From the IMG/VR virus record IMGVR_UViG_3300049215_000519, positions 1 through 64,000 of that record: 64,000 bases of DNA; one strand, 5' to 3'. Shown one piece after another: positions 26,878-63,068 of this stretch (position 1 is the first letter of the stretch; each line of letters starts with the position of its first letter). The notes beneath the pieces are model-generated. The model searched no databases. It had not been told where the DNA came from and was given only the letters and a program-made list of their open reading frames with translations. The stretch comes from a virus. The position numbers were made by a program, and so were the translations under genes.

Positions 26878-27074
26878 TTTGGCTTGAGAACCGTCTGGAC
26901 CTTCATCGAGGTCTTGCAGAGCTTCTTCTTGCGGTTCCAGCGCGTCGTCGGGCAGCAGAGCACGACCTTCGTGCCATGCTCTCCGACGGCCTTCGTGCGG
27001 AATGAGCCGTGCGCGCAGTGGCTCGGACTGAACCTGCGCTCGCGGATGAAGTTCTTGGTGACGTCGCGCGGCAT
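26874..27074 (-). CDS. Small basic Cys-containing protein
   Basis: TGATG overlap. HCAHGSF...VVLCCP. K/R-rich. Confidence 0.55.
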   Translation of the reverse strand: MPRDVTKNFIRERRFSPSHCAHGSFRTKAVGEHGTKVVLCCPTTRWNRKKKLCKTSMKVQTVLKPK

Positions 27075-27349
27075 CAGCGTCTCCTCTTCATCACGCGCGA
27101 CACGCCGAGCGCGCCGAGCCCGAGGATGGCAAGCACCACAAGGCCCGTGGTGACGCCTGGATCGTCGCCGAGCCCCATCATAGAGGTACTCGCCTTGTCA
27201 ACGTAGTGCGTGAAGTGAAGATCGTCGACGTGAACCTTGCCGCCCTTCTTCGTGGGCGGAGGTGGTGGGGGTGATAGATCTCTGATGCTAGCCGCGAGAA
27301 TAATAGGGTACTCGATGATCGGAACGCCGAGGCCTTTGAGGATCATCAT
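27074..27349 (-). CDS. Tail-anchored protein, GLGD-TM-KRRR C-terminus
   Basis: Starts MMILKGLG at 27349. Has a PPPPPP stretch. Ends SMMGLGDDPGVTTGLVVLAILGLGALGVSRVMKRRR. Confidence 0.6.
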   Translation of the reverse strand: MMILKGLGVPIIEYPIILAASIRDLSPPPPPPTKKGGKVHVDDLHFTHYVDKASTSMMGLGDDPGVTTGLVVLAILGLGALGVSRVMKRRR

Positions 27350-28378: not shown

Positions 28379-28639
28379 CTAACGCCTCCGCTTGCGGCCA
28401 AAGAGGCCGCGGTGTCGAGCCATCGTCTCCGTCGAGATGTTGCCGGTCGACGCCATCTCACGCGAGAACTCGGCGCAGCCGGCCATGAGGCTCTTCCGCG
28501 CGCGCGCTCGCTCGGCAGCCGTGAACCGATGGCCCTTCGGGTAGTTCATCGAGTTGAGCGCGTGGCCGTGACGATCCCACAGGATCGCTGCCGGGCCGCT
28601 ACGCCCCGTGATGAAGGTGACCTTGCACTTGGCTTTCAT
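28379..28639 (-). CDS. Small protein ending KRRR
   Basis: Start MKAKCKV at 28639 overlaps the upstream stop (ATGA). The track ORF 28379..28861 is an extension. Confidence 0.6.
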   Translation of the reverse strand: MKAKCKVTFITGRSGPAAILWDRHGHALNSMNYPKGHRFTAAERARARKSLMAGCAEFSREMASTGNISTETMARHRGLFGRKRRR

Positions 28640-28803
28640 CGCTTGCGCCTCGACGCGAGGAAGATCCCGCCCGCGAGCCCGAGAACAAGCATCACCGGGT
28701 GCTCGATCGCTGGGTCGAAGATGCCCATCAGGCTCACGCGCGGCGCGCGCGGCCCGGAGAGCTGCATGACGTACTGAAGACTTCCTAGACTTCCTAGGGC
28801 CAT
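28636..28803 (-). CDS. 55-aa tail-anchored protein ending RRKR
   Basis: Not in the ORF track (<60 aa). MALGSLGSLQYV...SLMGIFDPAIEHPVMLVLGLAGGIFLASRRKR. Its SD lies in the upstream Arg codons. Confidence 0.5.
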   Translation of the reverse strand: MALGSLGSLQYVMQLSGPRAPRVSLMGIFDPAIEHPVMLVLGLAGGIFLASRRKR

Positions 28804-28806: not shown

Positions 28807-29100
28807 TTATCGCCTCCGGCGATGGCCATGGAGCCCGAGGCGTTTCTTCGTCCACGGCCATGCGGTCTTGAGACCGAAGTAGCCAGCCCCGACCCCGACG
28901 ATCCCTACGAGCAGCGCCGAGACCCAGTCAGGGATCGGCGTGTCGCCGAGCCCGCTGAGCGTCGCCGTCGTGGGCACGCGGTTGTAGTAGTACGAAGCAT
29001 ACCCTCCGGGAATACCTGCGTAATATACGTAGGTCTTCTGGAGGGGGTTCATCGGGTCGTACTGGGCAGCTTGCTCCCACTGAGACAGAATCGTAGCCAT
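28807..29100 (-). CDS. Tail-anchored protein, GLGD-TM-RRRR C-terminus
   Basis: TLSGLGDTPIPDWVSALLVGIVGVGAGYFGL...HGHRRRR. Confidence 0.6.
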   Translation of the reverse strand: MATILSQWEQAAQYDPMNPLQKTYVYYAGIPGGYASYYYNRVPTTATLSGLGDTPIPDWVSALLVGIVGVGAGYFGLKTAWPWTKKRLGLHGHRRRR

Positions 29101-29292: not shown

Positions 29293-29354
29293 GGTGAGTC
29301 TCCTTGGAGAGTTACGAAGGAAGCCTTGCATGCCACCACCACGGAGTCAAGCCG

Positions 29355-47984: not shown

Positions 47985-48193
47985 CAGTTGATCCTGAGGC
48001 AGCTGTCGCCCGCGAGCGTCGCTCGCTGCGAGCTGGTGAGCGTGAGCCGCTTGGCCATGAGCGCGAACTGTCCTGCAGCGAGCGCGAACGAGCCCGGCGC
48101 GTACGATCCGATCGCTGGATCGTCGACGGTGTCTCCTGCTGGCAGCTGCTGTAGCTGCCCGCTGATGACGATGAGAGGAAGCCTAATCGCCAT
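47984..48193 (-). CDS. Short paralogue of the tail-fibre N-terminal module
   Basis: MAIRLPLIVISGQLQQLPAGDTV matches the N-terminus of 48195..48671. The true start at 48193 lies inside track ORF 47984..48277. Confidence 0.5.
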   Translation of the reverse strand: MAIRLPLIVISGQLQQLPAGDTVDDPAIGSYAPGSFALAAGQFALMAKRLTLTSSQRATLAGDSCLRIN

Positions 48194-48194
48194 G

Positions 48195-48671: not shown

Positions 48672-48679
48672 GGTGTCTC

Positions 48680-49782: not shown

Positions 49783-49823
49783 GACCCAAGGCTACCACTT
49801 CGACGGCGGGTTAAGCTTCGTGC

Positions 49824-50532: not shown

Positions 50533-51297
50533 TTGACCGATGGTACCAAGGAGGTTAGATCGGGAACCATGCCAAGAGCCAGAATCCGCGTGACCGCCAT
50601 TTCAGATACCTCGGTGACCCTAAATACTGTGGACGTGCCACGAGAGCTGTGGAACATCCTGGAACAGTGGGGATCCCTTCAGAGATTGAGCGCCAACCAA
50701 TCCTTTTGGATCTTCATGCTCAAGACCCTTACCGCAATCAAGAAGCGGAACCCGGCGTTCGAGGAGATCACGGCCGCATGTCATATGGGCCGCGAGAAAG
50801 CCATGGCGGATGAGGAGGATCGATCTGATCCTCAGGCAGTCAAGGCAAGGGATCTACCGCCGGTAGAATCCTACTACGACCTGCTCGAGACGAACGACAA
50901 GGCTGCGAGCGGATTCGTTGGTGTCTACCAAAACGGCAAAGCGTTCAGGGCGTCAGCCCCAAGGCCTGATGGACGTGGCAGTCGGAACGCGGTGAATGTG
51001 GGTACCTACGAAACCCCAGATCAAGCTGCGTTAGCCCGCCTGCTCTACTACCGGAAGCACAAGCTGATTTACGGTCGGCACGCCTTTGAGATCACAAGGC
51101 ATCAACAGATGCTCCATGAAATGGGTCGGACGGACACAACTTTCGAGGAGGCTCTTGAGTCCTTGAACGAGGCACGTGAGATGCGAGGCCAGGTGCGCAT
51201 CGAGATAGCAGACAACTGGCTTCTGTACATCGGAGAGAGGCCGACAGCGCTACTGGAGTTGCCTAGCGACGACGGCGCCGACGCTGCTTCTTCATGA
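50533..51297 (+). CDS. AP2-domain DNA-binding protein
   Basis: SGFVGVYQNGKAFRASAP.....VNVGTYETPDQAALARLLYY fits the AP2/integrase DNA-binding fold pattern. The start is uncertain (TTG 50533 or ATG 50569). Confidence 0.5.
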   Translation: MTDGTKEVRSGTMPRARIRVTAISDTSVTLNTVDVPRELWNILEQWGSLQRLSANQSFWIFMLKTLTAIKKRNPAFEEITAACHMGREKAMADEEDRSDPQAVKARDLPPVESYYDLLETNDKAASGFVGVYQNGKAFRASAPRPDGRGSRNAVNVGTYETPDQAALARLLYYRKHKLIYGRHAFEITRHQQMLHEMGRTDTTFEEALESLNEAREMRGQVRIEIADNWLLYIGERPTALLELPSDDGADAASS

Positions 51298-51538
51298 AGC
51301 GGTAACCGCCGTAGCCAAGCGCGCCGACGAGCGCGAGCAGGCCGAGCGTCTGCGTGGTCGACAGCGACGAGAGATCACCAAGGCCGGCGACGCCACGCAC
51401 GCAGCCTGCACAGCCGAAGGCGTTGCGCACGGGATGCATGTACGGGACGCCTCCGGTCTGGATCGGCGGCAGGCCAGTCGGCTCGAGGAACGAGCGGGTC
51501 AACGCGTCGGGCGTCATCCCCGTAGAGAGGATCATCAT
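51263..51538 (-). CDS. Tail-anchored protein, GLGD-TM-RRRRRR C-terminus
   Basis: GVAGLGDLSSLSTTQTLGLLALVGALGYGGYRFMKKQRRRRRR. TAGCAT-N6-ATG. The 3' end overlaps the AP2 gene by 35 nt. Confidence 0.6.
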   Translation of the reverse strand: MMILSTGMTPDALTRSFLEPTGLPPIQTGGVPYMHPVRNAFGCAGCVRGVAGLGDLSSLSTTQTLGLLALVGALGYGGYRFMKKQRRRRRR

Positions 51539-51865
51539 GCATGCATGCTAGCACGGGCTATGGATGCATGGATGCTCACCAAGCGCGTTGGACGGCTCGC
51601 CGCCGAATGCCGGGTGGAAGCGACGAGCCGTCTAGGGCCTGGAGGAGTCGTCAGTCTCGGGGCCTTGAATCGATGCTACCTCCGTCGTCGAATGGGTGCA
51701 AGCGTCGCGCGAGAGACGCGGATGATGCGGATGGTGGCTTCGTCGCGACGCATCGGAAACTCTGGGTCGTGCTGCATCAAGCAGTCAACGGGACGTCGAC
51801 ATGGGCATTCGCCAGCCTCGGATCCGCCAAGGCATGTGAGCCTGCAGTACGTGGCCCAGCGGGCT

Positions 51866-52354
51866 CTAGACGCCATCGTCCAGCTGAGAGGAGGTCTCGC
51901 GAGCAAGCTCGTCGTCCGCCGCGCGCGCGAGAGCCGCTGCGTCGACTACCGCGCGCGCGGTCGGCTGGTGAGGCTCGGGAACGTAGCGCTCGGGCTCGTT
52001 CTTACGCTTGACCTCCCACACTTCGCACTCACGTGCGAACTTCTCCATCTCGGATGCCAGCTCGAGGTCATGCGGCGAGCACGTCGGCAGCGCACGTACA
52101 CCCGCGGCGAGTGCGTTGAGTGCGGCGAACGGCCAGCGCTTGTTGACCTCGGGCGAGAGGTTTGCGATCGCGTAGCTGACGATTTCGAGCGCCGCGCGCA
52201 CGGCGTCGTGTAGCTGACGAACCTCGCCATCGTTCGCCTCGAACTTGGCGGCTAAGAGTTCGTCTTGCAGCTTCTTGACCTTCAGGCTCAGCTCGGCGTT
52301 CAGGTCGCGAGTCTGTTGATATTCCTCGAAGGGGAGGGTGACTGTCGCGGGCAT
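51866..52354 (-). CDS. Hypothetical coiled-coil protein
   Basis: ORF track entry. Immediately downstream of 52355..52612. Confidence 0.55.
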   Translation of the reverse strand: MPATVTLPFEEYQQTRDLNAELSLKVKKLQDELLAAKFEANDGEVRQLHDAVRAALEIVSYAIANLSPEVNKRWPFAALNALAAGVRALPTCSPHDLELASEMEKFARECEVWEVKRKNEPERYVPEPHQPTARAVVDAAALARAADDELARETSSQLDDGV

Positions 52355-52612
52355 TCAGACTCCTATGAGCAGTTGTCGTAGTTTGCCGGCCCAGCCGAGG
52401 TCGTATCCCGACGGAGCCACGAAGAACAGGATCGGCAAATAGCGGTCAGTCGGGTTGAAGATGTTCACCATTTCTCGACTGATCGTCGTCACCTGCATCC
52501 CCACCTTGATCAAGGTCAGGACCACCGGAGCCTCCGCTGGCGTCATCGGTGGAGTCACCTTGATCATCAGCGACCGGCCCGGAGGTAGGAAGCTCGTTCG
52601 CAGGTTTCTCAT
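52355..52612 (-). CDS. Hypothetical protein
   Basis: Third-position GC is clearly high in this frame from 52612 downward. The ATG at 52612 forms ATGA with a TGA in the -1 frame of the upstream gene. Confidence 0.5.
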   Translation of the reverse strand: MRNLRTSFLPPGRSLMIKVTPPMTPAEAPVVLTLIKVGMQVTTISREMVNIFNPTDRYLPILFFVAPSGYDLGWAGKLRQLLIGV

Positions 52613-52874
52613 TCCGGGGTTTCTTCTTTGGTTTGAGCTTCTTGCCTGGAGGATTCGACTCCCACTGGTACGGCTCCTTGTCGGCGTCGCCTTGGAAGAC
52701 TCCGCCGATCCGCCGGCCCCGCGTGCGCAGGTACGTGACCTCGAGCCCTAGCAGCTTCGCCGCGGCGTCCTCGTCCCAGTCAGCATAGACCAGAGCATCT
52801 CGCATTAGCTGCCGCTCGTGGCGACGCAGCTGTACGAAGAACGAGGCGTTGGGGTCACCCTTCGCACCCTTCAT
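52446..52874 (-). pseudogene. Fis-type HTH protein gene, probably frameshifted near its 3' end
   Basis: GGAGG lies upstream of the ATG at 52874. LMRDALVYADWDEDAAAKLLGLEVTYLRTRGRRIG is HTH_8-like. After the C4 run (plus 52616-52619) the frame loses GC3 bias. The -1 frame stops at TGA 52609-52611. Confidence 0.5.
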
Positions 52875-53203
52875 GGTTCCTCCTCTCCGACCGCGGTCCC
52901 CGCGTGGTCGAAGCCCCACTGCATGATGCCCGCGCCGATCGGCGTGAGCACGATCGAGCAGAGCCCGACGACTAGGCCTCCGACGATGTTGTCCAGAGGA
53001 ATTCCTAGGTAATCTAGATGGTAACCCCAGCCTACCGTCGCGGCGAGGAAGTTGCCCCACCAAAATCCGATGCATGCCGGGCAGTCGGCGAACGTGGCGA
53101 GCCAGCGCGGGTACCGTGACCAGAGCGCGCGCGTGATGACTGCCCGACTGCCTAGGTACCACAGAGAAGTGCTTAGGAGTGTGAAAAGCAGCACAGTAAA
53201 CAT
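52871..53203 (-). CDS. DUF1360-like membrane protein
   Basis: FADCPACIGFWWG motif and 3-4 TM segments. ATGA overlap. Confidence 0.55.
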   Translation of the reverse strand: MFTVLLFTLLSTSLWYLGSRAVITRALWSRYPRWLATFADCPACIGFWWGNFLAATVGWGYHLDYLGIPLDNIVGGLVVGLCSIVLTPIGAGIMQWGFDHAGTAVGEEEP

Positions 53204-53205
53204 GA

Positions 53206-53685
53206 CTACTCCACCTTGCCGCCGTTGTGCAGGTCATCCATCAACTCTTCTGGTAGCTTGTCAGCCTTTTCCCCTTCACGGGCGATGGAGGCTCCTTGAG
53301 CTGCGGTCCACCGGTCGCAGAGGAAGGTCGAGAAGACGAATTCGCCAACCGGGTCTCCGTTGGCGAGTCTTCCATGAGAGCAGCAGCCAATCTGCTTGGT
53401 GTGCACCTTTTCATCGATCATCGGAACTTGGGTTCTGATCGCTCGAACCTTGGGATGCTCTTCGCCCTGAGGTGAAGATAGCGCAATGGAAACCGCTCGA
53501 TTGAGCAGATCAAGCCGAGCATGGTCCCACCATTTCTTGTCAGCTTGCTCTGGGGACCAGTGGATGCAGTTCCAGCATCCTTGAGTTCGGATGGCCACGC
53601 GCTCGGCACCGACACCTGGCAACTTAGGTAGGAGGGCGTCTCGAAGCAACTCCTTGGATGTTTTGAGTGGCATTGCGCATGGCAC
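53206..53685 (-). CDS. Cys-rich hypothetical protein
   Basis: GTG start preceded by TAAGAC-N6. Contains GCWNCIHW and IGCCSHG. Confidence 0.55.
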   Translation of the reverse strand: MPCAMPLKTSKELLRDALLPKLPGVGAERVAIRTQGCWNCIHWSPEQADKKWWDHARLDLLNRAVSIALSSPQGEEHPKVRAIRTQVPMIDEKVHTKQIGCCSHGRLANGDPVGEFVFSTFLCDRWTAAQGASIAREGEKADKLPEELMDDLHNGGKVE

Positions 53686-53714
53686 TCTAATGTCTTATTT
53701 TGCCCAAGGCAAGT

Positions 53715-53743
53715 TTGACGTTCCCCTAGTCTAGGAGTAAGTA
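53715..53743 (+). promoter_or_regulatory. sigma70-like promoter with leaderless start
   Basis: TTGACG-N17-TAAGTA, then 6 nt, then GTG at 53750. Confidence 0.5.
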
Positions 53744-53749
53744 CATCAC

Positions 53750-55915
53750 GTGTCGAAAACATCTAAGTCTATCCCGAAGTCCCTCGACGCGGCGGCACTC
53801 GAGGAGATGGTGGAGCCTCTGACCATTCAGATCCAGAGGCAAAAGAATGGGATGCTGTCGCCTATCCCGATGCCGATCGGTGAGAGTGGGCAACCAGGTG
53901 TTGGATGGTCGAAGGCAGAGGTGCTCGCGATCGATCAGGGCTGGCTCGTCAACCACTGGTCAGGTGGCGGCTACTACGTCATCACCGTGACCGATGACAC
54001 TCGGCCCACACCCAAGAAACTCGTGTGGAATCCGATGTGGGACCCGGCGCTCTACCCCGAGAAGGTTCCACCGACGCTTGCCGACGCGGCGCGGCCGGGC
54101 ATCTTGGTCCAGCAACAGCAACCCGCGCAACCTCAACCAACGTCTCAACCTCAACCGCAGTTGATACCTCAACCGCAGTTGATACCTCAACCCCAGCAGG
54201 TGCCCATGTCGCAGTTTCCTGGTGGCCTACCTACGGGTGGGCTTCTCCCCATCCACACTGCCCAGTCGGGCTATCCTCAGCCGTCGCCGACGTACGCGCC
54301 TCAGCAGCCGTACTACAACCAGCCGCAGGGGTATCCTCAGGGATACCAGCAGGGCTATAACCCGATGATGGCTCAGATGGAAGCCGATCGTCGGCGACTC
54401 GAGGAACAGGTTGCTGCGATGCAGGTGGCGCTGCGCGCGACCGAGCTGGATGCGGTGCGGAAGCAGTACGCAGCCGAGCTGGAACGTGAGAAAGCTTCCA
54501 ACGCTGCAATGATCCAGCGTCTCGAGCAGAGGATTGCTGAGTTCACGGCGAGCGCGGCGACATCGAAGGTGAGCCCCGAGGTCGAGACGATTCGCGAGCA
54601 GATGCGCGCGCAGCAGGCTCAGCTCGAGTCGGAGCGCCGCGAGCGCGAGGCCGAGCGGCGCGAGCGCGAGATGCGCGAGCTGGTCGCCGGGCAGAATGCT
54701 CAGATCCAACGCCAGATCGAGCAGATGCAGCAAAACTACCAGATGATGGTGCAGGCTCAGGCTACCAAGGGGCCTGATCCTCTCATCCAGGTGATGATGG
54801 ACCAGAGCCGTAACTCGATGGAGGCCATGAAGGAGATCGCGCGCCAGTCGGGGGCCGCGATCGACAAGTTCCAGGCCTTCATGATGTCGCCGCGCGACGT
54901 CATGTCGATCACCAAGGACGCGTCGAACGGTCTAGACAACGTGACTCAGAAGATGACTCAGATGTTCTCGGGCGTGTTCGATCTGCAGAACAAGGTGCTC
55001 GAGAGCGCGATGTCGCTCAACCAAGGCGGCAACGACACCGTGGGGCTCATCCGCGAGGGCGTGACGAACGCCAAGGATCTATTCGAGCGCTACATCGTGT
55101 CGAAGAGCCGCGAAGCGCAGGTGACCGCGCAGGCGAGCGCCGCGACTGCACAGGCACAAGCACAGGCCGCAGCAGTGCGCGCGCAAGCTGATGCTTCAAT
55201 CGCGCAGTCTCGTCGGATGCCGCAGCAAGCTGGCCCGAACGGTGAAACGAGGGTGCAGCAAACGTCGTCGGCGATGCCTCAGCAGGCTGGGTTAGCTGGT
55301 CCGCCTGCGGGGCCTGGGAATGGCCGACCCAACGGCCATACCAACGGCAATGGCCAGCCCAACGGTAAGGCGGCTTTTGATGCGTGGCAGCAATCACGGC
55401 AGCAGGGTGAGCCGGCGAGGCCGACGCAGGCATACGTTCCCGAGCCCGCCCCTCCGCCTCAGCCGGCACCAGCGCAACATCAAGCGGCGCCGAGCGCCGT
55501 CGAAGTGATCGCGCAGCCGATGGTAAAATCCGATCAGGAATGGTTTGGCCCGCTCTTGCCCGAGGTGATCCAGCTGCGGCGCAGCGTCGATCTGTTCTTC
55601 GTCGGACTGCGGAAGCAGCCGCCCGTCGTCCAGCCCGGCAGTGCAGATCCGGCTGCAGTTGCCAAGGGCATCGCCACTGCGCTGCAGGCTGTGATGCAGC
55701 ACAACATCCCGATCCCGGCGTTGAACGAGCTGCTCGCGCCGGGCGACTTCGAGGGCTTCTTCCGCGTGCTCTTGCCCGCAGCCACACCCGAGTTCCATGC
55801 CGATGCGATCCACGAACTGAAGCAGCTGCTTGGCCTACCGCCTGAAGAAGGCGAAGAAGAGGACGACTTCGGGGACGACGACAGCGACGACGTGCGCGAC
55901 GGCGCGTCAGCATGA
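53750..55915 (+). CDS. 721-aa protein: globular N-domain, PQ-repeat linker, long coiled coil, acidic tail
   Basis: 18-nt tandem repeat at 54149..54192 (PQLIPQ, 2 copies). E/R/Q-rich heptad-like region. C-terminus EEGEEEDDFGDDDSDD. Confidence 0.65.
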   Translation: MSKTSKSIPKSLDAAALEEMVEPLTIQIQRQKNGMLSPIPMPIGESGQPGVGWSKAEVLAIDQGWLVNHWSGGGYYVITVTDDTRPTPKKLVWNPMWDPALYPEKVPPTLADAARPGILVQQQQPAQPQPTSQPQPQLIPQPQLIPQPQQVPMSQFPGGLPTGGLLPIHTAQSGYPQPSPTYAPQQPYYNQPQGYPQGYQQGYNPMMAQMEADRRRLEEQVAAMQVALRATELDAVRKQYAAELEREKASNAAMIQRLEQRIAEFTASAATSKVSPEVETIREQMRAQQAQLESERREREAERREREMRELVAGQNAQIQRQIEQMQQNYQMMVQAQATKGPDPLIQVMMDQSRNSMEAMKEIARQSGAAIDKFQAFMMSPRDVMSITKDASNGLDNVTQKMTQMFSGVFDLQNKVLESAMSLNQGGNDTVGLIREGVTNAKDLFERYIVSKSREAQVTAQASAATAQAQAQAAAVRAQADASIAQSRRMPQQAGPNGETRVQQTSSAMPQQAGLAGPPAGPGNGRPNGHTNGNGQPNGKAAFDAWQQSRQQGEPARPTQAYVPEPAPPPQPAPAQHQAAPSAVEVIAQPMVKSDQEWFGPLLPEVIQLRRSVDLFFVGLRKQPPVVQPGSADPAAVAKGIATALQAVMQHNIPIPALNELLAPGDFEGFFRVLLPAATPEFHADAIHELKQLLGLPPEEGEEEDDFGDDDSDDVRDGASA

Positions 55916-55916
55916 A

Positions 55917-55937
55917 GTCAGACCCATCGAGTACAAC
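55917..55937 (+). promoter_or_regulatory. GTCAGACC-N7-TANNNN element
   Basis: GTCAGACCCATCGAGTACAAC, then 6 nt, then GTG at 55944. Confidence 0.45.
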
Positions 55938-55943
55938 TGAGGA

Positions 55944-56261
55944 GTGCTTGGAGCCCTTCAGATTGTCTCGACGGTGGTCGCAACGGCGTTGCTGATCTTT
56001 TGGAACCCGGCCATCTACGCGCTTGGTGCTGCGTTCGTGTGGATGACCATCTTCGCGCTCTTCGTTGTTCGAGAACGTGAGCTGAAGACGACGCTCTACC
56101 AGAACAAGATCAGGTACCCGTCTGAGTCGGTCGAGCCGATCTACGCGGTCATCTCGTCGTTGATCTTGGCCGGGCTATGGCCCGGCTTGCCGATCATCGT
56201 CTGGTACGACTTCGGGACCGTCGCAACGCAGAACCGCTCGAGAGGCAGTGAGCGCCTTTGA
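55944..56261 (+). CDS. Three-TM membrane protein
   Basis: Hydrophobic segments VVATALLIFW, AAFVWMTIFALFVV and ISSLILAGLWPGLPIIV. Confidence 0.6.
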   Translation: MLGALQIVSTVVATALLIFWNPAIYALGAAFVWMTIFALFVVRERELKTTLYQNKIRYPSESVEPIYAVISSLILAGLWPGLPIIVWYDFGTVATQNRSRGSERL

Positions 56262-56490
56262 GGCCGGTGTGCTTGGCGTCGAAGATGCGCAGCAGCGTGA
56301 GCGTGCTGATGAACATCGACGCGAGCGCCGAGCCGACGAAGGCCTGCTTGGCTGGCACGCCGACGAACAGCATCGGCGGAGCGATGAGCAGCGTGCGCAG
56401 CGCCGTCCAGCCAAGAAGTGCAAATCCCGAGCCCTTCTCGTTCTCGAGGACGCCCGCGACGGTGCGGTACGTGGGGAGCTTGGGAGTCAT
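56194..56490 (-). CDS. Membrane protein with Arg-rich C-terminus
   Basis: High third-position GC. TM segments. Ends RRSRSRTRR. Convergent 68-nt overlap with 55944..56261. Confidence 0.5.
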   Translation of the reverse strand: MTPKLPTYRTVAGVLENEKGSGFALLGWTALRTLLIAPPMLFVGVPAKQAFVGSALASMFISTLTLLRIFDAKHTGLKGAHCLSSGSALRRSRSRTRR

Positions 56491-56510
56491 GACCTTGAAG
56501 GAAAGATATC

Positions 56511-56990
56511 ATGGGCAGACCATTTGAAAATGTCTTCTCAAGATTCTGGAAAAAGACCAAGAAGCAGGGGTCTTGCTTGATTTGGATTGGGAGCAAATAC
56601 AGTGGAGATCGAGGATCTTTCACTGTGGCCGTACCTGGTGAAAATCGAAGGATATGCGTGATGGCCCATCGGTGGATCTACCAGCAAGTATTTGGTCCGC
56701 TGCCAAGAAGCACGGTTCTCCTTCATTCATGTGATGTCTCATCATGTGTAGCTTTGCAGCATTTGAGTCCCGGATCTCAACGACAAAACATTAGAGACTG
56801 TATCGATAAAGGTCGGTTTGCTTATGCAGATCGGATGCCTCATAGCAAACTGACTTTTGAACAAGTAAAAGAAATTAGGCGGTTAAGGGAGAAAAATGGG
56901 CTGTCCCAGCAGAAGTTGGCTGATCGTTTTGGTGTGAGTCGTGAACTAGTTAGGGACATCGTGCTGGGGAGGAAACGCAATGGCCATTAA
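56511..56990 (+). CDS. HNH homing-endonuclease-like protein with C-terminal HTH
   Basis: CLIWIGSKYSGDRGSF...AHRWIYQQVFGPLP....LHSCDVSSCVALQHL (HNH_3-like), then SQQKLADRFGVSRELVRDIV (HTH). Markedly AT-rich. Confidence 0.7.
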   Translation: MGRPFENVFSRFWKKTKKQGSCLIWIGSKYSGDRGSFTVAVPGENRRICVMAHRWIYQQVFGPLPRSTVLLHSCDVSSCVALQHLSPGSQRQNIRDCIDKGRFAYADRMPHSKLTFEQVKEIRRLREKNGLSQQKLADRFGVSRELVRDIVLGRKRNGH

Positions 56991-57642
56991 AGTGAGCATT
57001 GGAATTCCGGCGTACGGTGGGAAGGTAGCAGTAGGCCAAGCTCGGATGTGGCTCGCGTTCGGCGCCGCGATGCGCTCGGCGATTTCCGCACGGCACGCCG
57101 ACTTCGCCACGTTCATCACAATGGATGTATGTGGGGTCGATCGCGCGCGGAACTACCTGCTCGCGCACGCGATGGCTCAGGGAGCTGATTGGCTGCTCAT
57201 GGTCGACTCCGACACGTGGACCGACAACGGCGGAGGCCTGCTCACGATGATCTTGGCTGGCGCGCAGCTGGAGGCCACGATCATCGGAGCGCCCGTGTAC
57301 CGTTCGGTCGACGGCAAGCAAATGCTGAACGTCTACCAGCGCGAGGACGGCAAGCGCGTCTGCATCGACCCTCGCGACATGCGCGCCGGCGGCGTGATAC
57401 CTTTCGAGGTCGACTCGATCGGTTCAGCCGTGATGGCGATCGATCTCCACCGAGTCCCCGCCGATCTCTCGTTCAAGTTCACCGAGGACACAAGCGAGGA
57501 TCTCTACTTCTGCGAGGGCATCAAGAAGGCGGGTGGCAAGATCTACTGCGATCGGCGCATCGAAACCAACCACATCAAGTCGTACACGATGACCTACAAG
57601 TTGGGTGAGCTTTCCACTAACCCGCCTGAGCGGAAAGAATAG
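56980..57642 (+). CDS. Putative GT-A-fold glycosyltransferase
   Basis: VSIGIPAYGG, ARNYLLAHAMAQGADWLLMVDSDTW (DxD), EDLYFCEGIKKAGGKIY. Confidence 0.5.
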   Translation: MAIKVSIGIPAYGGKVAVGQARMWLAFGAAMRSAISARHADFATFITMDVCGVDRARNYLLAHAMAQGADWLLMVDSDTWTDNGGGLLTMILAGAQLEATIIGAPVYRSVDGKQMLNVYQREDGKRVCIDPRDMRAGGVIPFEVDSIGSAVMAIDLHRVPADLSFKFTEDTSEDLYFCEGIKKAGGKIYCDRRIETNHIKSYTMTYKLGELSTNPPERKE

Positions 57643-58291
57643 CTTCCTCTTCGTCGAGGAGTCGTCGCTCTTGCTTGATCAGCTTCGCGTTGCGGATCGT
57701 GGTCACGATCGACGAGATCACGATCGCCGAGGTCGAGAGGATCGACAGCCAGAAGAGTTTGTTGTTTCGAGCTTGCTGAGCGGCGAGGTTCGCCAGTATC
57801 TGCATCACAGTTGGATCGGTGACACCGGCGTCGCCGAGTGGCCGGCCAGGAACGGGATTCGCGGGTGAATTCTCGAGCCAGCTGCGATCGCGAGGCACCA
57901 TGCGTGGGCCGTACCCGCCAGCCGGGTCGTACCCGTTCGGCGGGATCCACGTGCCGGGTTGAAAGCCTTCCTTCGCGGCGACGAAGCCGTCGCTGAACGG
58001 TACCCAGCCGTAGGTCGATGCGAGGTCGAAGTCGGTCGGGATCGAGCGGCCGAGGCCGAGCTTCTTCGCAACCTTCTTCGCGACGCGCCTCTCAAGCCAG
58101 GAAGGCTTCTTGCGCGCGCTGCCCAGCTGCGTGTCGTGGTAGAAGCCGACCTCGCCGCGGGTGTTGTGGAACGGATCGTCCGGGCAGAGGTACGTGCCGT
58201 CGCCGCCGTAGCTGTAGCCGACCTCGAAGGGTGGCGCGCCCGGGATCTGGCCTTGGGGCGTGAGCTTGATGCCGAGACCGAGATGGCTCAT
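57617..58291 (-). CDS. Membrane-anchored hypothetical protein
   Basis: MSHLGLGIKL start. PLGDAGVTDP followed by the TM segment LFWLSILSTSAIVISSIVTTI. Confidence 0.55.
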   Translation of the reverse strand: MSHLGLGIKLTPQGQIPGAPPFEVGYSYGGDGTYLCPDDPFHNTRGEVGFYHDTQLGSARKKPSWLERRVAKKVAKKLGLGRSIPTDFDLASTYGWVPFSDGFVAAKEGFQPGTWIPPNGYDPAGGYGPRMVPRDRSWLENSPANPVPGRPLGDAGVTDPTVMQILANLAAQQARNNKLFWLSILSTSAIVISSIVTTIRNAKLIKQERRLLDEEEAILSAQAG

Positions 58292-58311
58292 GTCATGAGC
58301 CTAACACGGAT

Positions 58312-58644
58312 TTACAGCTTCTTCATTGCCAGCCAGACCGCGTACAGGAGCCCGAATCCTAGGGCTGCAATGCCGAATATGGTCGTGGTGGTCATGTCGC
58401 CGCGGAGGCCCTTGAGCTGCGACTGCGTGCCGTACATGTCGAGCAGCACGGGCTGCCCGGAGTCGTCCGTCATCGCCGAGGCCGGCATGCCCGGAGGCCA
58501 GAGCGGCGGTAGCCCGCTGGTGTCGTACCAGCCGTACATCGGCACACCGTACGAGCCCGAACTGATCTCGTCAGGCGGGCACGTCGCGGGCGCGCCGAGC
58601 TGGATGGTGTACGAGCCAGGTGAAACGCCGACGGTCCGCATCAC
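58312..58644 (-). CDS. Tail-anchored protein (GLRGD-TM-KK)
   Basis: QLKGLRGDMTTTTIFGIAALGFGLLYAVWLAMKKL. Confidence 0.55.
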   Translation of the reverse strand: MMRTVGVSPGSYTIQLGAPATCPPDEISSGSYGVPMYGWYDTSGLPPLWPPGMPASAMTDDSGQPVLLDMYGTQSQLKGLRGDMTTTTIFGIAALGFGLLYAVWLAMKKL

Positions 58645-58850
58645 GAGCCTCTCTTCAGGCGCTTCACGGCGACGAAGCTCGTGAGGCCGAACATCACGCC
58701 GAGAAGTCCAAGTGCGAGCGACGCGAGGACGTATGGCATGACCGTCGCCTTCACCTGCATCTGGATCTCGGGGATCGCGGCTTCAGCACCAGCGGTCGCC
58801 TTGCCCTGGATGTAGTTCGTAACGTCGTCGAGAAACCCGTTGAATTGCAC
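58641..58850 (-). CDS. Tail-anchored small protein
   Basis: VMPYVLASLALGLLGVMFGLTSFVAVKRLKRGS. Confidence 0.5.
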   Translation of the reverse strand: MQFNGFLDDVTNYIQGKATAGAEAAIPEIQMQVKATVMPYVLASLALGLLGVMFGLTSFVAVKRLKRGS

Positions 58851-58858
58851 GAGTCACC

Positions 58859-59287
58859 TCACTTCGCGAGCTTGTAGACGCCGAAGCCGAGCAGGGCCAC
58901 GATGCCGAGGATACCGAGCGGCGTGGCGTAGAATGGCGTGGGTGCCTGAAGGCACGTGGGATAGGAGCCGGGCGAACCAGGAAGGCACGCGCACGCGGGG
59001 TAGCTGCCTTGCGAACCTGGCGGACACACGCCACCAGGAGTCACGAGCCCCGACGCGGCGCCCTTCACGAGCGACGTCAGCGCGGTCGGCCACCACGAGG
59101 ACTGGTTGTTCTGCGGCGAGCCAGAGCTTCCAGTCGAGGATGATCCAGAGTTCGCGGCTGCGGAGTCGGCGTCGACACATGCGTTGTTGCAGTTGTAGAA
59201 CGCGTCCGAGGTCGGATCGTAGTTCGCTTGGCAGGCTGCGTTGCAGGACGTGTAGTCCCCAAGCCCGCTGAGACCGAGGAACATCAT
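58859..59287 (-). CDS. Cys-rich tail-anchored protein
   Basis: MMFLGLSGLGDYTSCNAAC start. Has 10 Cys. C-terminal TM LGILGIVALLGFGVY then KLAK. Confidence 0.55.
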   Translation of the reverse strand: MMFLGLSGLGDYTSCNAACQANYDPTSDAFYNCNNACVDADSAAANSGSSSTGSSGSPQNNQSSWWPTALTSLVKGAASGLVTPGGVCPPGSQGSYPACACLPGSPGSYPTCLQAPTPFYATPLGILGIVALLGFGVYKLAK

Positions 59288-59302
59288 CGTGGGTAACCTT
59301 TG

Positions 59303-60823
59303 CTAGGGATTAGTAGGCGCGGTGCGAGACTTCTTCGCTGAAATGATACCCAATCCTACGGCACCGATCACGCCAACGATCACGTACCACTGAAGGTACC
59401 ATGGGGTCGCATCTGGTGGCCTGCAGATAGGATTCGTGGCTGCTTGCGCGGGGTCCAAGCAGTTGACAGACGATGTCGGAGGCTTATGACAGAGCTTGGA
59501 GGCTGCGAGCACAGCTGCCGCGGCGTAGGGACTCGACTTCGCCATCTGGGTCGCTTGCGCAGGGTTGGAACAGACGAGCGAGAGGATCGCGCTCAGCGCA
59601 TCGGCAGCGAGACCACCGAGTGTCATCGGGATCCACTCGAGCGCGTCGATGATGTAATCGTACCAGGGCTCTTGCGGAAGTGGTCCGATGCCGATCTTCA
59701 ACTTGTAGCCGTTGGGATTATCGGTCTGCACGTTCCACGCGCCGTTCGCGTACGCGTTCGAGTCGATGATCGCGGCCATCCAGATGCCCCACGTGTCTCC
59801 AGTGATCGGATGGCGGAACTTCGAGATCGGCGGAACGTTCAGCGGCGGGTCGTACTCGAAGAACTGGTGAGCGAGCTGCGCGTCGGTTTTGGCTACGCCA
59901 CCCGAGTTCCAGAAGAACTGCGCGATACCGTCTTGATCCGAGAGCCCAGGCTTGAACGAATTGAGCCAGTCTCGCGTGTCGAACCACTTGTACACGTTCG
60001 GATCGCCCGCGTACTGGACCCACTCGGCGGGGAAGTTATTCGCGTCGGGCGCGGCGCCGACGAAGACAACCGGCTTGTTGGGGGTGCTCTGCGTGTGCTT
60101 GTAGCAACCAGGATCGCTCGTGCAGTTGCACTCCTGATAGCCCTGCGTGTTTGGTTGGCCTCCCCACGTTGCGGGTACCGTGCAGACCTTCGAGCCGTCA
60201 GGGCAGCAGCCTGCTGGCAGCTTGCCGGCGAAGCCTCGAGTCGGGTCGAAGTACGGAAACGAGAACGACGTCGGCGCGTCTGGGAAGTGGTTCGGTAGCC
60301 CTGTTCTGAGCGCGGTTGCAAACGCGGCCGCGAACCAATCTCTCCAGCCCTTTGGAATCTGCGCAGGATCGGAGATGGTCGTGATCTGAACACCCATCGC
60401 CTGCTGACCGCTCGCCGAATCCTTGATCGCCGCTGAGGTCAGATCGGCAACGGTGCTACCAAACACCATGTTGGCGCGGTTGATCGCACTCTCGTCGGCT
60501 GCGATCGCTCCACCGTTGATGCTCCACGCGAGTGGGCCGATGAAGACTGGGTAGCCAGCCGTGATGATGTCGTGCGCGCTCTGCGCGACGTGGCCAGCGA
60601 ACGTGACAGCCGAGTCATCGCTGACGACGCGCCATGCACCTTGCTGCCAGATCAACCGACCATCCGACGTCCCGTAGTTCTCGAGCGCCTGGTTCTTCGC
60701 GTTGTCCGGTGATTGCACCGTGCCAGTTGTGATCTGGCCCGGATGTGTGATGGCAGGGTTGATCAGCGCGTTCGGCGCGGCCCCGAGTGCGAATCTACGG
60801 CCGCTCGACAGCCCGAAGTACAT
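59303..60823 (-). CDS. 506-aa tail-anchored ectodomain-like protein
   Basis: Large Cys-containing domain (CCPDGSKVC, CNCTSDPGC). Single C-terminal TM WYVIVGVIGAVGLGII then SAKKSR. Confidence 0.6.
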   Translation of the reverse strand: MYFGLSSGRRFALGAAPNALINPAITHPGQITTGTVQSPDNAKNQALENYGTSDGRLIWQQGAWRVVSDDSAVTFAGHVAQSAHDIITAGYPVFIGPLAWSINGGAIAADESAINRANMVFGSTVADLTSAAIKDSASGQQAMGVQITTISDPAQIPKGWRDWFAAAFATALRTGLPNHFPDAPTSFSFPYFDPTRGFAGKLPAGCCPDGSKVCTVPATWGGQPNTQGYQECNCTSDPGCYKHTQSTPNKPVVFVGAAPDANNFPAEWVQYAGDPNVYKWFDTRDWLNSFKPGLSDQDGIAQFFWNSGGVAKTDAQLAHQFFEYDPPLNVPPISKFRHPITGDTWGIWMAAIIDSNAYANGAWNVQTDNPNGYKLKIGIGPLPQEPWYDYIIDALEWIPMTLGGLAADALSAILSLVCSNPAQATQMAKSSPYAAAAVLAASKLCHKPPTSSVNCLDPAQAATNPICRPPDATPWYLQWYVIVGVIGAVGLGIISAKKSRTAPTNP

Positions 60824-60843
60824 GCGGCAAGGCTACCACGTAG

Positions 60844-61176
60844 TTACGCCTTGCCCATAGCGCGCTTGTCGGCACGATACAACCAGAAAGCCCCACCACC
60901 AAGGATCACGAAGAACACCGCGAGTGGCCACTTCCAACCGCCGCCCGCGATTGAGGCCGCGGCAGCCGACGGCGAGATCGCCGATGTCGGGTCGAGCTGG
61001 ATGTTCGGGTCGACGTACTGCCCGCGGACTGCAGACTGGCAGAACGACTGGTTGGGGTCCTGTTCGCAAGGATCCTTCGGACCGACAGGGCCGAAGGCCT
61101 GGCACACGGGATCGCCGGGGTTGAGCGTGCAAGGGTCTGTGTCGGTGACGTAGTCCGAGAGACCCATGATCATCAT
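60844..61176 (-). CDS. Cys-rich tail-anchored protein
   Basis: MMIMGLSDYVTDTDPC start. C-terminal TM WPLAVFFVILGGGAFWLY then RADKR. TAGCCT-N7-ATG. Confidence 0.55.
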   Translation of the reverse strand: MMIMGLSDYVTDTDPCTLNPGDPVCQAFGPVGPKDPCEQDPNQSFCQSAVRGQYVDPNIQLDPTSAISPSAAAASIAGGGWKWPLAVFFVILGGGAFWLYRADKRAMGKA

Positions 61177-61214
61177 GCAGAGCAGGCTACCACGCTGTGG
61201 TAGGCTTGTGCCAA

Positions 61215-61907
61215 ATGGCTAGCCTCCTCAAGATCTCCGGTTGGCTCGGGGTCGGGCTGCTCGCGACGGGGATCTACCTCTATTGGCGCGAGAAGAAGCT
61301 GCAAGGCCTCGGTGGGCATCGCTACATGGCTGGTCGCTTTGCAGAGGCACCCGTCGTCGACAGCTACTCCGACGGCAACATGACCACGGTACTGCGCGCG
61401 AGCCAAGACATGCCGATCGAACAAAGGATCGCCTCGATTCAGAAGCTGATCGAGAAGAGCGTGCAAGACCCCGAGATGAGAAAACTAGCTGGAGTTCTGA
61501 CTGCACACTGCGGTGATCGGGATGGTACATGCGAGGCAAAGGCGATCTACAAGGCCATCAAGAAACGTGTTCGCTATGTCGGAGACGTGGCCCCGATCAA
61601 ATGGTCGTCAGGTGATGTAGAAGGTATTGATTTGTATCAGAGTGCGAGAAGGACCTGGGAGCTGAAAATAGGTGATTGTGATGACATGGCTATCCTTGCC
61701 TCTACCTTGCTCTCTGTCATCGGAATCACGTCACGATTGAGAGTTACTGCAGAGTCCGCTGATGCGGACTGGGGTCACATTTATGCCGTCGGGTTGTTAC
61801 CTAAGTTTTCCCCGACTTACGCTGTCGCCTTAGATACGACGTTGCCCGGCTCCTCTAAATTTGGAGTCGAAGTGCCTTCAGGCAAGATCATGGATTTTGA
61901 TGCCTGA
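61215..61907 (+). CDS. N-terminally membrane-anchored transglutaminase-like cysteine enzyme
   Basis: TM segment ISGWLGVGLLATGIYLYW. GDCDDMAILASTLLSVIGI (Cys), WGHIYAV (His), ALDTT (Asp). TAGGCT-N8-ATG at 61215 (the track starts at GTG 61197). Confidence 0.6.
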   Translation: MASLLKISGWLGVGLLATGIYLYWREKKLQGLGGHRYMAGRFAEAPVVDSYSDGNMTTVLRASQDMPIEQRIASIQKLIEKSVQDPEMRKLAGVLTAHCGDRDGTCEAKAIYKAIKKRVRYVGDVAPIKWSSGDVEGIDLYQSARRTWELKIGDCDDMAILASTLLSVIGITSRLRVTAESADADWGHIYAVGLLPKFSPTYAVALDTTLPGSSKFGVEVPSGKIMDFDA

Positions 61908-62419
61908 AGATACTCTGCAGCGGCAATCAGTCTAGTTGATGAGTCCTTGAAGTGCCCTAGGCCCTGATTGCAGGAATTGCAGAGCAGGCCTCGAATCTTC
62001 TTCGTGTGATGATCGTGGTCAACAGCAAGTTTCATCACGCGGCCGAGCTTCATCGTTGTCTCAGGCTGCTTGCAGATTTTGCAGACTCCACTCTGTTCGA
62101 GCATCATGCGTTCGAAGTCGTTTGGAGTCAGTCCCAACCGACGTAGTTTATTTTTGTGATTTAGTGCGATCTCTTTTTCGCGATAGCTTGGGTCATCGCG
62201 TCGACGTTGGTTCTGGCGGGCCTTTTTACGCTCGAGCCTGGCTCGTTTATAGTGGGGGTCAATTGTTAGCGTTTTCATCTTGGCGAGCTTTGCTTCTCGA
62301 AAACCTGGCTTGGTTCGATAGCGTTCTCGGTCATACGCGTTCCAGCATTTTCGACAGCGGCCAAGTCGATGAGGATCAACCTCTCCGGTTTGGAGGCACT
62401 TTGGGCATAGGATCGTCAT
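61817..62419 (-). CDS. Endonuclease VII-family (Endo_7) nuclease
   Basis: CKICKQ....LAVDHDHHTKKIRGLLCNSCNQGLGHFKDS...AAAEYL. ATG at 62419 lies 7 nt after the motif hexamer. AT-richer than the surroundings. Confidence 0.75.
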   Translation of the reverse strand: MTILCPKCLQTGEVDPHRLGRCRKCWNAYDRERYRTKPGFREAKLAKMKTLTIDPHYKRARLERKKARQNQRRRDDPSYREKEIALNHKNKLRRLGLTPNDFERMMLEQSGVCKICKQPETTMKLGRVMKLAVDHDHHTKKIRGLLCNSCNQGLGHFKDSSTRLIAAAEYLQASKSMILPEGTSTPNLEEPGNVVSKATA

Positions 62420-62426
62420 GCCTTCC

Positions 62427-62447
62427 AAAATACACCGGACGTCTGAC
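62427..62447 (-). promoter_or_regulatory. GTCAGACC-N7-TANNNN element (variant GTCAGACG)
   Basis: GTCAGACGTCCGGTGTATTTT, then 7 nt, then ATG at 62419. Confidence 0.45.
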
Positions 62448-62469
62448 AACGTGTGGTAGGCTCGGGATC

Positions 62470-62730
62470 ATGCAACGGAAGGCCAGAGGATTACGGTGTG
62501 GGGTTGGCGAGAAGCGTTTCACCGTCGTGCAGGTCGGCAATGATCCGGGCGACTCTCATGCTGGTCGGTCGTTCCAGGACGCGATGGAGCTGGCGATGCC
62601 CGATCGTGGATCGCACGTGAACGTCTTCGTGACGTGCGCTCGAGATGGCGGTGAAGCCAGAATGCCGTACAACTACAGGTCACGAGGCAAGCTCGTGCGT
62701 TCGTTCCGAACCAAGCGAGGTGGCTCATGA
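62470..62730 (+). CDS. Hypothetical protein
   Basis: TAGGCT-N7-ATG at 62470. The stop overlaps the next ATG (ATGA). In-frame tail of ORF 62056..62730. Confidence 0.45.
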   Translation: MQRKARGLRCGVGEKRFTVVQVGNDPGDSHAGRSFQDAMELAMPDRGSHVNVFVTCARDGGEARMPYNYRSRGKLVRSFRTKRGGS

Positions 62731-63068
62731 GATTCGCACGTACATCGCTCGGGCTCATCCCCGACTGGCAGTTCTCGACGGATCCAGCCGTCAACCTGAA
62801 GATCAACCCGCACGTTCAGTATCCTGCGGGCGTGTACCAGACGACGTCTCAGCCGCTCGGGCCGTACTACGGTGGCTCCGAAGGCCGTGGTGAAGGTCTT
62901 GGCTACACGACGCAGCGGTTCGCGAACATGAAGTTCCCGGCGCGAGGCAGCCTGCTCGGGCTCAGCGATCTTTCGTCGACGCAGATGACCGTCGGCGCGA
63001 TCGCGCTGCTTGGCGTCGCGGCGGTGGCGTGGAACGTCCTCGGCAAGAAGAAGCGTCGTCGGCGATGA
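62727..63068 (+). CDS. Tail-anchored protein, GLSD-TM-KKKRRRR C-terminus
   Basis: SLLGLSDLSSTQMTVGAIALLGVAAVAWNVLGKKKRRRR. The tail is homologous to that of 51263..51538. Confidence 0.55.
   Translation: MRFARTSLGLIPDWQFSTDPAVNLKINPHVQYPAGVYQTTSQPLGPYYGGSEGRGEGLGYTTQRFANMKFPARGSLLGLSDLSSTQMTVGAIALLGVAAVAWNVLGKKKRRRR

Follow-up and report, generated by a model that had tools for sequence, protein, structure and literature searches.

A short peptide motif, [LMFIV]-x-G-L-[GS], recurs in C-terminally anchored membrane proteins whose genes surround that of a membrane-anchored, transglutaminase-fold enzyme in IMGVR_UViG_3300049215_000519 (positions 1-64,000; hereafter the window, meaning the whole 64,000-nucleotide stretch of viral DNA analysed, with a G+C content of ~60% and phage-like gene content). 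We tentatively favour the view that this enzyme, encoded at 61215..61907, is a membrane-tethered maturation or processing protease that would cut the motif at Φ-x-G-L↓G (Φ, a hydrophobic residue), a site of the adenovirus IVGL↓G type. An earlier note on this DNA had drawn attention to at least six proteins ending in G-L-[GS]-D, a transmembrane (TM) helix, and a poly-basic tail, and had suggested a virus-encoded anchoring, processing, or cross-linking system around the same enzyme.

The transglutaminase-fold enzyme and the recurrent motif

The predicted layout of the enzyme is as follows.

61215..61907 (+): N-terminal TM helix, REKK, LQGLG (61299-61313), catalytic domain; putative cysteine protease

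The assignment of a TM-anchored Cys-His-Asp enzyme of transglutaminase fold, already made in the earlier note, was borne out by a Pfam match, an invariant triad, and a structure model. The protein matches Pfam Transglut_core (PF01841) with 27.6 bits against a cut-off of 23 (E = 3.8e-6), and most of its homologues carry a precomputed PF01841 match. Residues C155 (GDCDD), H188 (HIY), and D207 (LDTT) are invariant in 36 homologues of 53-71% identity, as are C99 and C106. The AlphaFold2 model has a pLDDT (predicted local distance difference test score) of 90.5. Eight Foldseek matches reached E ≤1e-3; most are transglutaminase-like (the putative proteases 3kd4 and 3isr; TglA, LapG, and PNGase), the odd one being a chain of a doublet-microtubule entry. 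Further matches were the phage pseudomurein endoisopeptidases PeiW and PeiP (in both PDB and BFVD) and CPR-C4, and no adenain, Ulp, or I7 protease was among the top 50. Taken together, the sequence and model matches establish the predicted fold and the Cys-His-Asp triad, which do not by themselves fix the reaction catalysed. The ATG at 61215 is taken as the start because a GTG at 61197 falls inside the promoter-like element described below. The 3′ end of the gene overlaps by 91 nt an Endonuclease VII (HNH-type) gene on the minus strand (61817-62449), which is probably a mobile nuclease insertion; most relatives have a tail-anchored GYHGYRRN-family gene at that position, and one locus (L003) also has the nuclease.

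Homologues of the enzyme form more than 250 clusters in metagenomes, on contigs of typically 77-94 kb, and an identical protein was found on a contig of 85,185 bp. The DNA around the homologues was taken from ~20 related genomes (loci with L numbers below), with genes called by a codon-usage script. All related loci that were examined show five to eight tail-anchored genes beside the enzyme gene, encoded on the other strand, and one to three more downstream of it. The cluster of enzyme and anchored proteins is kept even in a distant lineage, L002 (IMGVR_UViG_3300032214_001486), in which the enzyme is 25% identical and itself tail-anchored and the paralogous proteins use another N-terminal motif, MxFxPSPYS. 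In L002, poly-Lys/Arg runs stand before the TM helix rather than after it, and one protein has tandem RRNTLLMNLHGNG repeats.

The window genes of this neighbourhood also share an upstream DNA element.

GTGGTAGSCT, 61184-61206: inverted pair (inverted repeat) between the genes at 60844 and 61215, each copy 7-8 nt from an ATG
GTGGTAGSCT, 60830-60839, 62453-62462, and 49789-49798: further copies
GTGGTAGSCT, 58298-58307: further copy with one mismatch

Six genes (61215, 60844, 59303, 57617 with one mismatch, 62470, and 49093) have the element 7-8 nt ahead of their ATG, and no Shine-Dalgarno sequence was found in the leaders of these six. If up to one mismatch is allowed, the window has 13 matches where 4.0 are expected, and none of 100 shuffles reached 13. 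These data suggest that the genes are co-regulated, possibly as leaderless transcripts; the element looks like a late −10-type promoter element that gives leaderless mRNAs.

The anchored proteins of the window, with their copies of the motif, are listed below.

51263..51538 (−): 91 aa; V-A-G-L-G-D (51374-51391), 9 residues, Gly-rich TM helix, KKQRRRRRR
62727..63068 (+): 113 aa; conserved N-terminal LGLIPDWQF domain, L-L-G-L-S-D (62952-62969), TM helix, KKKRRRR
28807..29100 (−): 97 aa; L-S-G-L-G-D (28942-28959), TM helix, basic tail ending HRRRR
27074..27349 (−): 91 aa; starts MMILKGLG; M-M-G-L-G-D (27164-27181), TM helix, KRRR
28636..28803 (−): small membrane protein of 55 aa; LMGIFD, a loose motif match only, TM helix, SRRKR
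58312..58644 (−): tail-anchored; N-terminal VGVxPGT domain, L-K-G-L-R-G-D (58396-58416), TM helix, KKL
58859..59287 (−): 142 aa, Cys-rich, tail-anchored; two overlapping N-terminal motifs, MMFLGLSGLGD (59255-59281)
60844..61176 (−): 110 aa, Cys-rich, tail-anchored; starts MMIMGLSD (61153-61170); divergent from the enzyme gene
59303..60823 (−): 506 aa, Cys-rich, tail-anchored (MYFGLSSG...); one internal GLSD, no strict Φ-x-G-L-[GS] outside the TM helix
57617..58291 (−): 224 aa, tail-anchored; MSHLGLG..., internal KKLGLGR
58641..58850 (−): 69 aa, tail-anchored; conserved AIPxIQ family
25134..25823 (+): 229 aa; C-terminal TM helix, KRRRR; without the motif

The element that recurs across relatives is [LMFIV]-x-G-L-[GS], with the consensus L-[NRSA]-G-L-G-[AID]. 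We counted it in the window plus 17 independent related loci and took composition-preserving shuffles as the expectation. Outside TM segments, [LMFIV].GL[GS] occurs 167 times against 29.2 expected (the largest of 200 shuffles gave 45) and [LMFIV].GLG 136 times against 17.4 expected, the latter spread over at least 8 families plus the enzyme. Within the window, eight sites fall in the 2,066 aa of the anchored proteins and the enzyme versus two in the remaining 16,629 aa (Fisher p = 8e-7). The Gly codons at the motif are GGC (62), GGG (50), GGT (45), and GGA (10); because they vary synonymously, selection appears to act on the peptide rather than on the DNA, and a DNA-level motif was rejected on the same ground.

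The motif occupies four kinds of places. First, it stands in the first 5-12 residues of many tail-anchored proteins (e.g., MMFLGLSGLGD, MMIMGLSD, MFLGLGD, MLTLGLGD, and MYFRGLRGLGD); G[LFIM][GS] is found within the first 14 residues of 35 of 213 tail-anchored proteins versus 13 of 541 others (p = 4e-11), and the MM[IF][LM]GL[SG] starts that the earlier note had seen in several proteins are indeed present. Orthologues of 58859 start MMFYGLRGLGG, MILMGLSGFGG, or MITMNGLG; those of 60844 start MLLMGLSD, MFLGLGD, or MYFRGLRGLGD; and those of 58641 start MMLLGIADD or MMLFGFRGLSD. The counterpart of 27074 in L022 starts MIFMGLS and ends with the TM helix and EPRRRRRRR.

Second, the motif lies 5-25 residues before the C-terminal TM helix and is conserved there in the 28807, 58312, and 62727 families, in which the sites stay fixed while the flanks vary or carry indels. 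In the 28807 family (alignment A2), L48 and G50 are invariant, L51 and G52 are at least 90% conserved, and D53 is variable. In the 58312 family (alignment A8), the Leu and the first Gly are at least 90% conserved and most orthologues have L-x-G-L-G. In the 62727 family (alignment A9), juxtamembrane x-G-L-G-[IV]-(D) is kept in at least six of 10 orthologues, with WWWxNRKW-TM-LK in place of LSSTQ-TM-polybasic. The gene at the position equivalent to 51263 in L006 likewise encodes V-D-G-L-G ahead of a TM helix. The possibility that these pre-TM motifs are the N-termini of very short, internally started proteins was rejected, since orthologues of 62727, 58312, and 28807 conserve the domains that precede the motif.

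Third, the motif occurs in the linker behind the enzyme's own TM anchor (KLQGLGG in the window), where 53 of 80 homologues have it or a G[LFM][GSA] variant. Fourth, it is found in tandem in two conserved late proteins encoded just past the window end: a ~216-aa protein with 2-7 copies, mostly LNGLGI every 11 residues, in 15 of 16 orthologues, and a ~177-aa protein with up to three copies. Orthologues of 57617 have L-x-G-L-G at the internal site. Most copies in the relatives are N-terminal or tandem inside other proteins rather than in C-terminal tails.

It seems very improbable to us that the motif has no dedicated function and merely mirrors Gly/Leu-rich composition, common ancestry of paralogous membrane proteins, and translational-coupling sequences. 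Several families are joined by BLAST (e.g., 58859 with 60844), the tails of 51263 and 62727 are alike in DNA, Arg runs are explained by GGAGG, as detailed below, and orthologues are included in the enrichment counts. However, the shuffles never approached the observed counts; the motif recurs in families without detectable similarity to one another, and in the enzyme; its sites are fixed where the flanks diverge; and L002, despite similar composition and architecture, shows no enrichment (three observed versus 1.5 expected).

C-terminal tails of the anchored proteins

The six tails quoted in the earlier note (51263, 62727, 28807, 27074, 28636, and 58312) all proved exact, and in each of them 2-7 Lys/Arg, without an acidic residue, come after a hydrophobic stretch. 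Across the predicted window proteome (~18,700 residues) there are seven copies of GL[GS]D against 0.8 expected (largest shuffle, four), every one in a C-terminally anchored protein: four copies are pre-TM (27074, 28807, 51263, and 62727), two are at the extreme N-terminus (58859, MMFLGLSGLGD; 60844, MMIMGLSD), and one is internal (59303). The tripartite signal is therefore strict in four of the six proteins, whereas 28636 (GIFD) and 58312 (GLRGD) do not fit, although the 58312 family conserves L-x-G-L-G. The Asp is not a conserved part of the motif: it often follows the motif in this genome, to which it is specific, but it varies in homologues and occupies P2′ in only 21 of the 167 sites.

The basic clusters are present in all six tails, but as a component of a signal they stand only in part. 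In the operon at 27074-29480, almost every gene ends ...CGG AGG CGx TGA whether or not its product has a TM helix, and five non-TM proteins of this operon share the Arg-run ending, because the GGAGG Shine-Dalgarno of the downstream coupled gene reads in frame as Arg-Arg. For example, the final CGG AGG CGA of 28807 is the Shine-Dalgarno of the next gene, and AAG AGG AGA CGC TGA at the end of 27074 overlaps the next gene's Shine-Dalgarno and start. The Arg/Lys runs of 51263 and 62727 are genuine and not explained in this way; the Arg codons of 51263 are not a Shine-Dalgarno, and no gene follows downstream. This minus-strand operon encodes small, very basic proteins whose Arg runs overlap the next gene's GGAGG, also in the relatives L021 and L022; its products may be DNA-condensing or virion-core proteins, or the Arg runs may reflect only translational coupling.

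The description of the tails as family-independent has to be qualified, since those of 51263 and 62727 share similarity at the DNA level (GATCTyTCGTCG...ACGCAGA) and are therefore probably homologous modules. A hidden Markov model (HMM) of the tail, the check proposed in the earlier note, gave no convincing non-seed match (at most 15 bits, versus 10 bits on reversed sequences), and in the relatives it often split into an N-terminal motif match and a separate TM match. The spacing between motif and TM helix is loose (5-25 residues), and the basic tails of orthologues are short, variable, or absent. We conclude that the six tails are C-terminal membrane anchors of the ordinary kind, in which a basic cluster follows the TM helix, and that they belong to a set of single-pass membrane proteins specific to this lineage.

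By a hydropathy heuristic, all 12 anchored proteins lack an N-terminal signal peptide (best 10-residue value 0.0-1.9), whereas three lipoprotein-type signals in the window score 2.9-3.3 for the best N-terminal 10-residue hydropathy. These signals, with a lipobox Cys, belong to 9078-9371, 15256-15747, and 23429-23836 (LIAAC, LTAC, and LVAC), and the phage therefore uses standard export signals where needed.

Given these results, a true C-terminal sorting signal, with the transglutaminase-like enzyme cleaving, re-anchoring, or cross-linking its carriers, appears highly unlikely. The tripartite layout in four to six window proteins, the conservation of juxtamembrane L-x-G-L-G in three families, and a candidate enzyme that is conserved and syntenic speak for such a signal. 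Against it, no candidate substrate has a signal peptide, which all known systems require (PMC11980579); the -CTERM models are unmatched; most motif copies are not C-terminal; and, with the loose spacing and short tails noted above, the Arg runs are partly Shine-Dalgarno and also occur on soluble proteins. A Pfam scan of the tails for -CTERM or anchor models returned nothing, and an NCBIfam scan at E up to 10 returned only sub-threshold noise (LPXTG_anchor, 11.2 bits; Rumino_NPXTG, 12.9 bits). As the earlier note had remarked, no sortase is visible: none of the scanned window proteins or related loci encodes a sortase, exo- or archaeosortase, rhombosortase, or CPBP myxosortase, a search that covered phage loci; the host may encode one. 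Isopeptide cross-linking was set aside, as the motif has no conserved Gln or Lys.

Function of the enzyme and the motif

In the mechanism that we propose, the product of 61215..61907 would be a membrane-tethered cysteine protease that recognises the motif and cuts, most simply, between the Leu and the following Gly or Ser. Such cuts would remove N-terminal peptides, detach domains from their membrane anchors, and perhaps liberate the enzyme as well, much as the maturation protease of adenovirus acts on many virion precursors at (M/I/L)-X-G-X↓G. Both the scissile bond and the biological purpose are what we infer. We favour a membrane-tethered processing protease because in form the motif resembles the sites of papain-type viral proteases, with a hydrophobic residue at P4, Gly at P2, Leu at P1, and Gly or Ser at P1′. 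For comparison, IVGL↓G is a consensus site of the adenovirus protease, an enzyme that acts near the ends of many unrelated virion precursors (PMC4246237). The connection between enzyme and motif, pure inference in the earlier note, now has circumstantial support from synteny, the common upstream element, and the motif in the enzyme's linker, which we read as processing, with cleavage as a putative step.

Several observations weigh against such a protease. Judged by the charges that flank the helices, the enzyme domain would lie on the basic side of its TM helix, normally the cytoplasmic one, and the substrates' pre-TM motifs on the opposite side of theirs; the topologies thus inferred conflict, and the substrates nonetheless lack signal peptides. 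Cutting the N-terminal sites would release only 5-10 residues, and sites 11 residues apart would yield tiny peptides, which a docking or structural repeat fits at least as well. The strict motif is found in the linker of only 19 of 80 enzyme homologues. The structural matches of the enzyme are weak, and because their TM-scores (template modelling scores) are only 0.3-0.4 they do not fix its class (protease, amidase, deamidase, or lysin). The motif counts include orthologous sites and are for that reason not phylogenetically independent. Finally, catalysis and cleavage at the motif are throughout putative steps.

A serious, if somewhat less probable, alternative is that the motif is a non-catalytic short linear motif, such as a hinge, a turn, or a docking site for the assembly of a membrane-protein or virion complex, and that the enzyme does something else, e.g., acts as a membrane-tethered cell-wall endopeptidase for lysis or entry. 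The tandem LNGLGI repeats, one every 11 residues, resemble a structural or binding repeat more than they do cleavage sites, and the charge-based topology sets enzyme and pre-TM motifs on opposite membrane faces; however, the motif is also present in the enzyme's own linker, and its P4-hydrophobic, P2-Gly form is typical of papain-type viral protease sites (PMC4246237). For a lysin, PeiW and PeiP are among the Foldseek matches, but these are no better than the protease ones (E ~2e-3, TM-score ~0.3). The TM helix of the enzyme is Gly-rich and weakly hydrophobic (hydropathy 1.5), as in signal-arrest-release lysins, and neither the window nor L024 and L027 showed a recognisable canonical endolysin; yet the enzyme gene lies among anchored-protein genes, while holin- and spanin-like genes are at the far end of the related genome.

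Should the enzyme indeed cut at the motif, it would provide the first case of a transglutaminase-fold protease that serves maturation or processing in a phage; its substrates, membrane anchors included, could be read from the sequence, and its recognition peptide, of 5-6 residues, would be defined. Such a protease would also offer a way to study how membrane-associated late proteins are assembled in a large and essentially unannotated phage lineage, which comprises hundreds of metagenomic protein clusters and in which most late genes are without a PHROG match. Even if the motif serves only in docking or structure, the attractive sortase-type reading of the tails is corrected.

Lineage, late module, and known systems

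The phage is temperate, ~85 kb, and of a poorly known soil lineage, and its ~85-kb temperate genomes are abundant in metagenomes. Integrase genes are present in the window (21462-22406), in L021 (1-1900 and 20184-20300), and in L022 (18334-19368), and L021 also has a flanking SulP/STAS transporter gene, all of which indicates a temperate lifestyle with prophage copies within bacterial contigs. The only two hints of a host, a contig from a Polyangiales metagenome-assembled genome (L023) and a protein named as from Tepidisphaeraceae, are too little to name one. Cultured phages gave no match, either to 40-64 kb in megablast or to the 506-aa protein (59303..60823) in tblastn, and with the window polymerase as query only its intein matched (mycobacteriophages, ~31% identity). 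Locus searches using the 506-aa protein alone or the UvrD protein alone retrieved no relatives. Other features of the window are as follows.

53750..55915 (+): 721-aa Gln/Pro-rich coiled-coil protein with an acidic tail; conserved member of the enzyme neighbourhood
Replication and other genes: family-A DNA polymerase (N-terminal uracil-DNA glycosylase (UDG)-like domain and LAGLIDADG intein), UvrD- and SNF2-type helicases, primase-like protein
Further genes: Sak4-like annealing protein, exonuclease, integrase, block of sugar-nucleotide genes

Orthologues of the 721-aa protein, 668-712 aa long, were found in 14 loci. Neither it nor the 506-aa protein has a Pfam or PHROG match, and nine late proteins (eight from L008 and one from L006) and the L008 homologue of the 721-aa protein had no match in PHROGs. 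Profile searches against PDB sequences with the enzyme family and the 236-, 165-, and 337-aa late families gave only noise. The window polymerase (32991-37106, −) combines the UDG-like N-terminus with the intein, and the polymerases of L021 and L022 are intein-free and ~1,030-1,055 aa long. Three further regions of the window are repetitive: a 107-codon open reading frame (ORF) at 18994-19317 (+) that is almost all Gly/Glu (GGGGEGGEGG...) and has a good codon-usage score, being either a repeat region or a low-complexity protein; tandem paralogues at 13317-13751 and 13754-14182 (144 and 142 aa, both ending DVMTQGGIG); and four tandem paralogues at 47352-49782 that start MAIRLPL or similar, one with a weak tail-fibre PHROG match.

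The late module was read in L024 and L027 (collinear genome IMGVR_UViG_3300005445_000001). Besides further membrane proteins, it encodes a thioredoxin-like protein and pectate-lyase-like spike proteins, and neither a Walker A motif nor an FtsK/HerA-type packaging ATPase was found in it. Window ORFs of at least 300 aa and the late module of the collinear relatives (~97% of the genome) yielded no terminase, portal, or HK97 capsid. Among the late proteins, one of 236 aa is the most conserved (78% mean column identity); it has a copy on the window's own contig, and its N-terminus is homologous to that of 58312. Its model is all-beta with low confidence (pLDDT 65.7), and its best structural matches, which are non-significant (E ≥0.026), are jelly-roll capsids, HHIV-2 first, with SH1, SPV1, and picorna-, papilloma-, and polyomaviruses; a jelly-roll capsid identity is a lead suggested by this model rather than a result. 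The thioredoxin-like (CxxC) gene (L024 10937-11275, L001 20132-20488, and L009 18307-18666) lies beside Cys-rich membrane proteins without signal peptides, and a virus-encoded disulfide pathway is a possibility. A 274-aa tail-anchored protein of L024 was considered as a SleB-like cell-wall hydrolase and rejected, there being no Pfam or PHROGs support.

These genomes may represent a new lineage of bacterial viruses that have no tail but a jelly-roll capsid around an internal membrane, in which the tail-anchored proteins, many of them Cys-rich, would be the virion membrane proteome, served by the thioredoxin-like protein, and the enzyme a maturation protease or a sortase-like transpeptidase acting at Φ-x-G-L↓G; we regard this as unlikely. 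On such a reading, the system may be a bacterial counterpart of adenovirus-type maturation carried out by a different protease fold, and a tailless, membrane-containing virion would greatly extend the genome-size range of such bacterial viruses. Similar to the PRD1-type and sphaerolipovirus-type viruses with an internal membrane (HHIV-2 and SH1; PMC6414509), the phage encodes many small single-pass membrane proteins with its late genes and lacks a detected terminase, portal, and HK97 capsid. Unlike them, it has a genome four to eight times larger and tailspike-like pectate-lyase proteins, without the packaging ATPase searched for above.

The known C-terminal sorting systems (LPXTG/sortase, PEP-CTERM/exosortase, GlyGly-CTERM/rhombosortase, and MYXO-CTERM/myxosortase) act on substrates that carry N-terminal Sec signal peptides (PMC11980579). 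The phage proteins share with them the C-terminal order of motif, TM helix, and Arg-rich cluster, several carriers per genome, and unrelated upstream domains. They differ in having no signal peptides, no match to a curated model, no sortase-class enzyme, a looser spacing to the TM helix, a motif that is mostly N-terminal or tandem, and an Arg cluster that is partly an artefact of translational coupling.

Two kinds of transglutaminase-fold enzymes offer further comparisons. PeiW and PeiP of methanogen phages are likewise phage-encoded cysteine enzymes, but they are cell-wall lysins with wall-binding repeats, have no TM anchor, and are not tied to motif-bearing membrane proteins. LapG, also with a Cys-His-Asp fold and among the Foldseek matches (4u65, 4fgp, and 4fgq), is a protease; it clips a membrane-retained protein, an adhesin, at a short motif of small residues close to the N-terminus. 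It is soluble, calcium-dependent, and periplasmic, and cuts a di-alanine site in a single adhesin substrate. Its structural match to the phage enzyme is weak (TM-score ~0.3), with no relationship detected at the sequence level.

A parallel in mode of action is the adenovirus maturation protease (AVP, adenain), which cuts at (M/I/L)-X-G-G↓X and (M/I/L)-X-G-X↓G, e.g., IVGL↓G in pVI (PMC4246237). In both cases there would be one virus-encoded Cys-His-acid protease and a single short consensus in which P4 is hydrophobic and P2 is Gly, with sites scattered near the N- or C-ends of many unrelated late proteins, and [LMFIV]-x-G-L-G fits (M/I/L)-X-G-X↓G literally. In contrast to adenain, the phage enzyme has a transglutaminase-like fold, is membrane-anchored, belongs to a virus with a bacterial host, and would cleave many putative substrates that are membrane proteins; the resemblance is in working mode, not family membership. 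The system is thus best described as a putative instance of a viral protease with its consensus site, new in its different fold, its membrane anchor, its membrane-protein targets, and its occurrence in an uncharacterised phage lineage.

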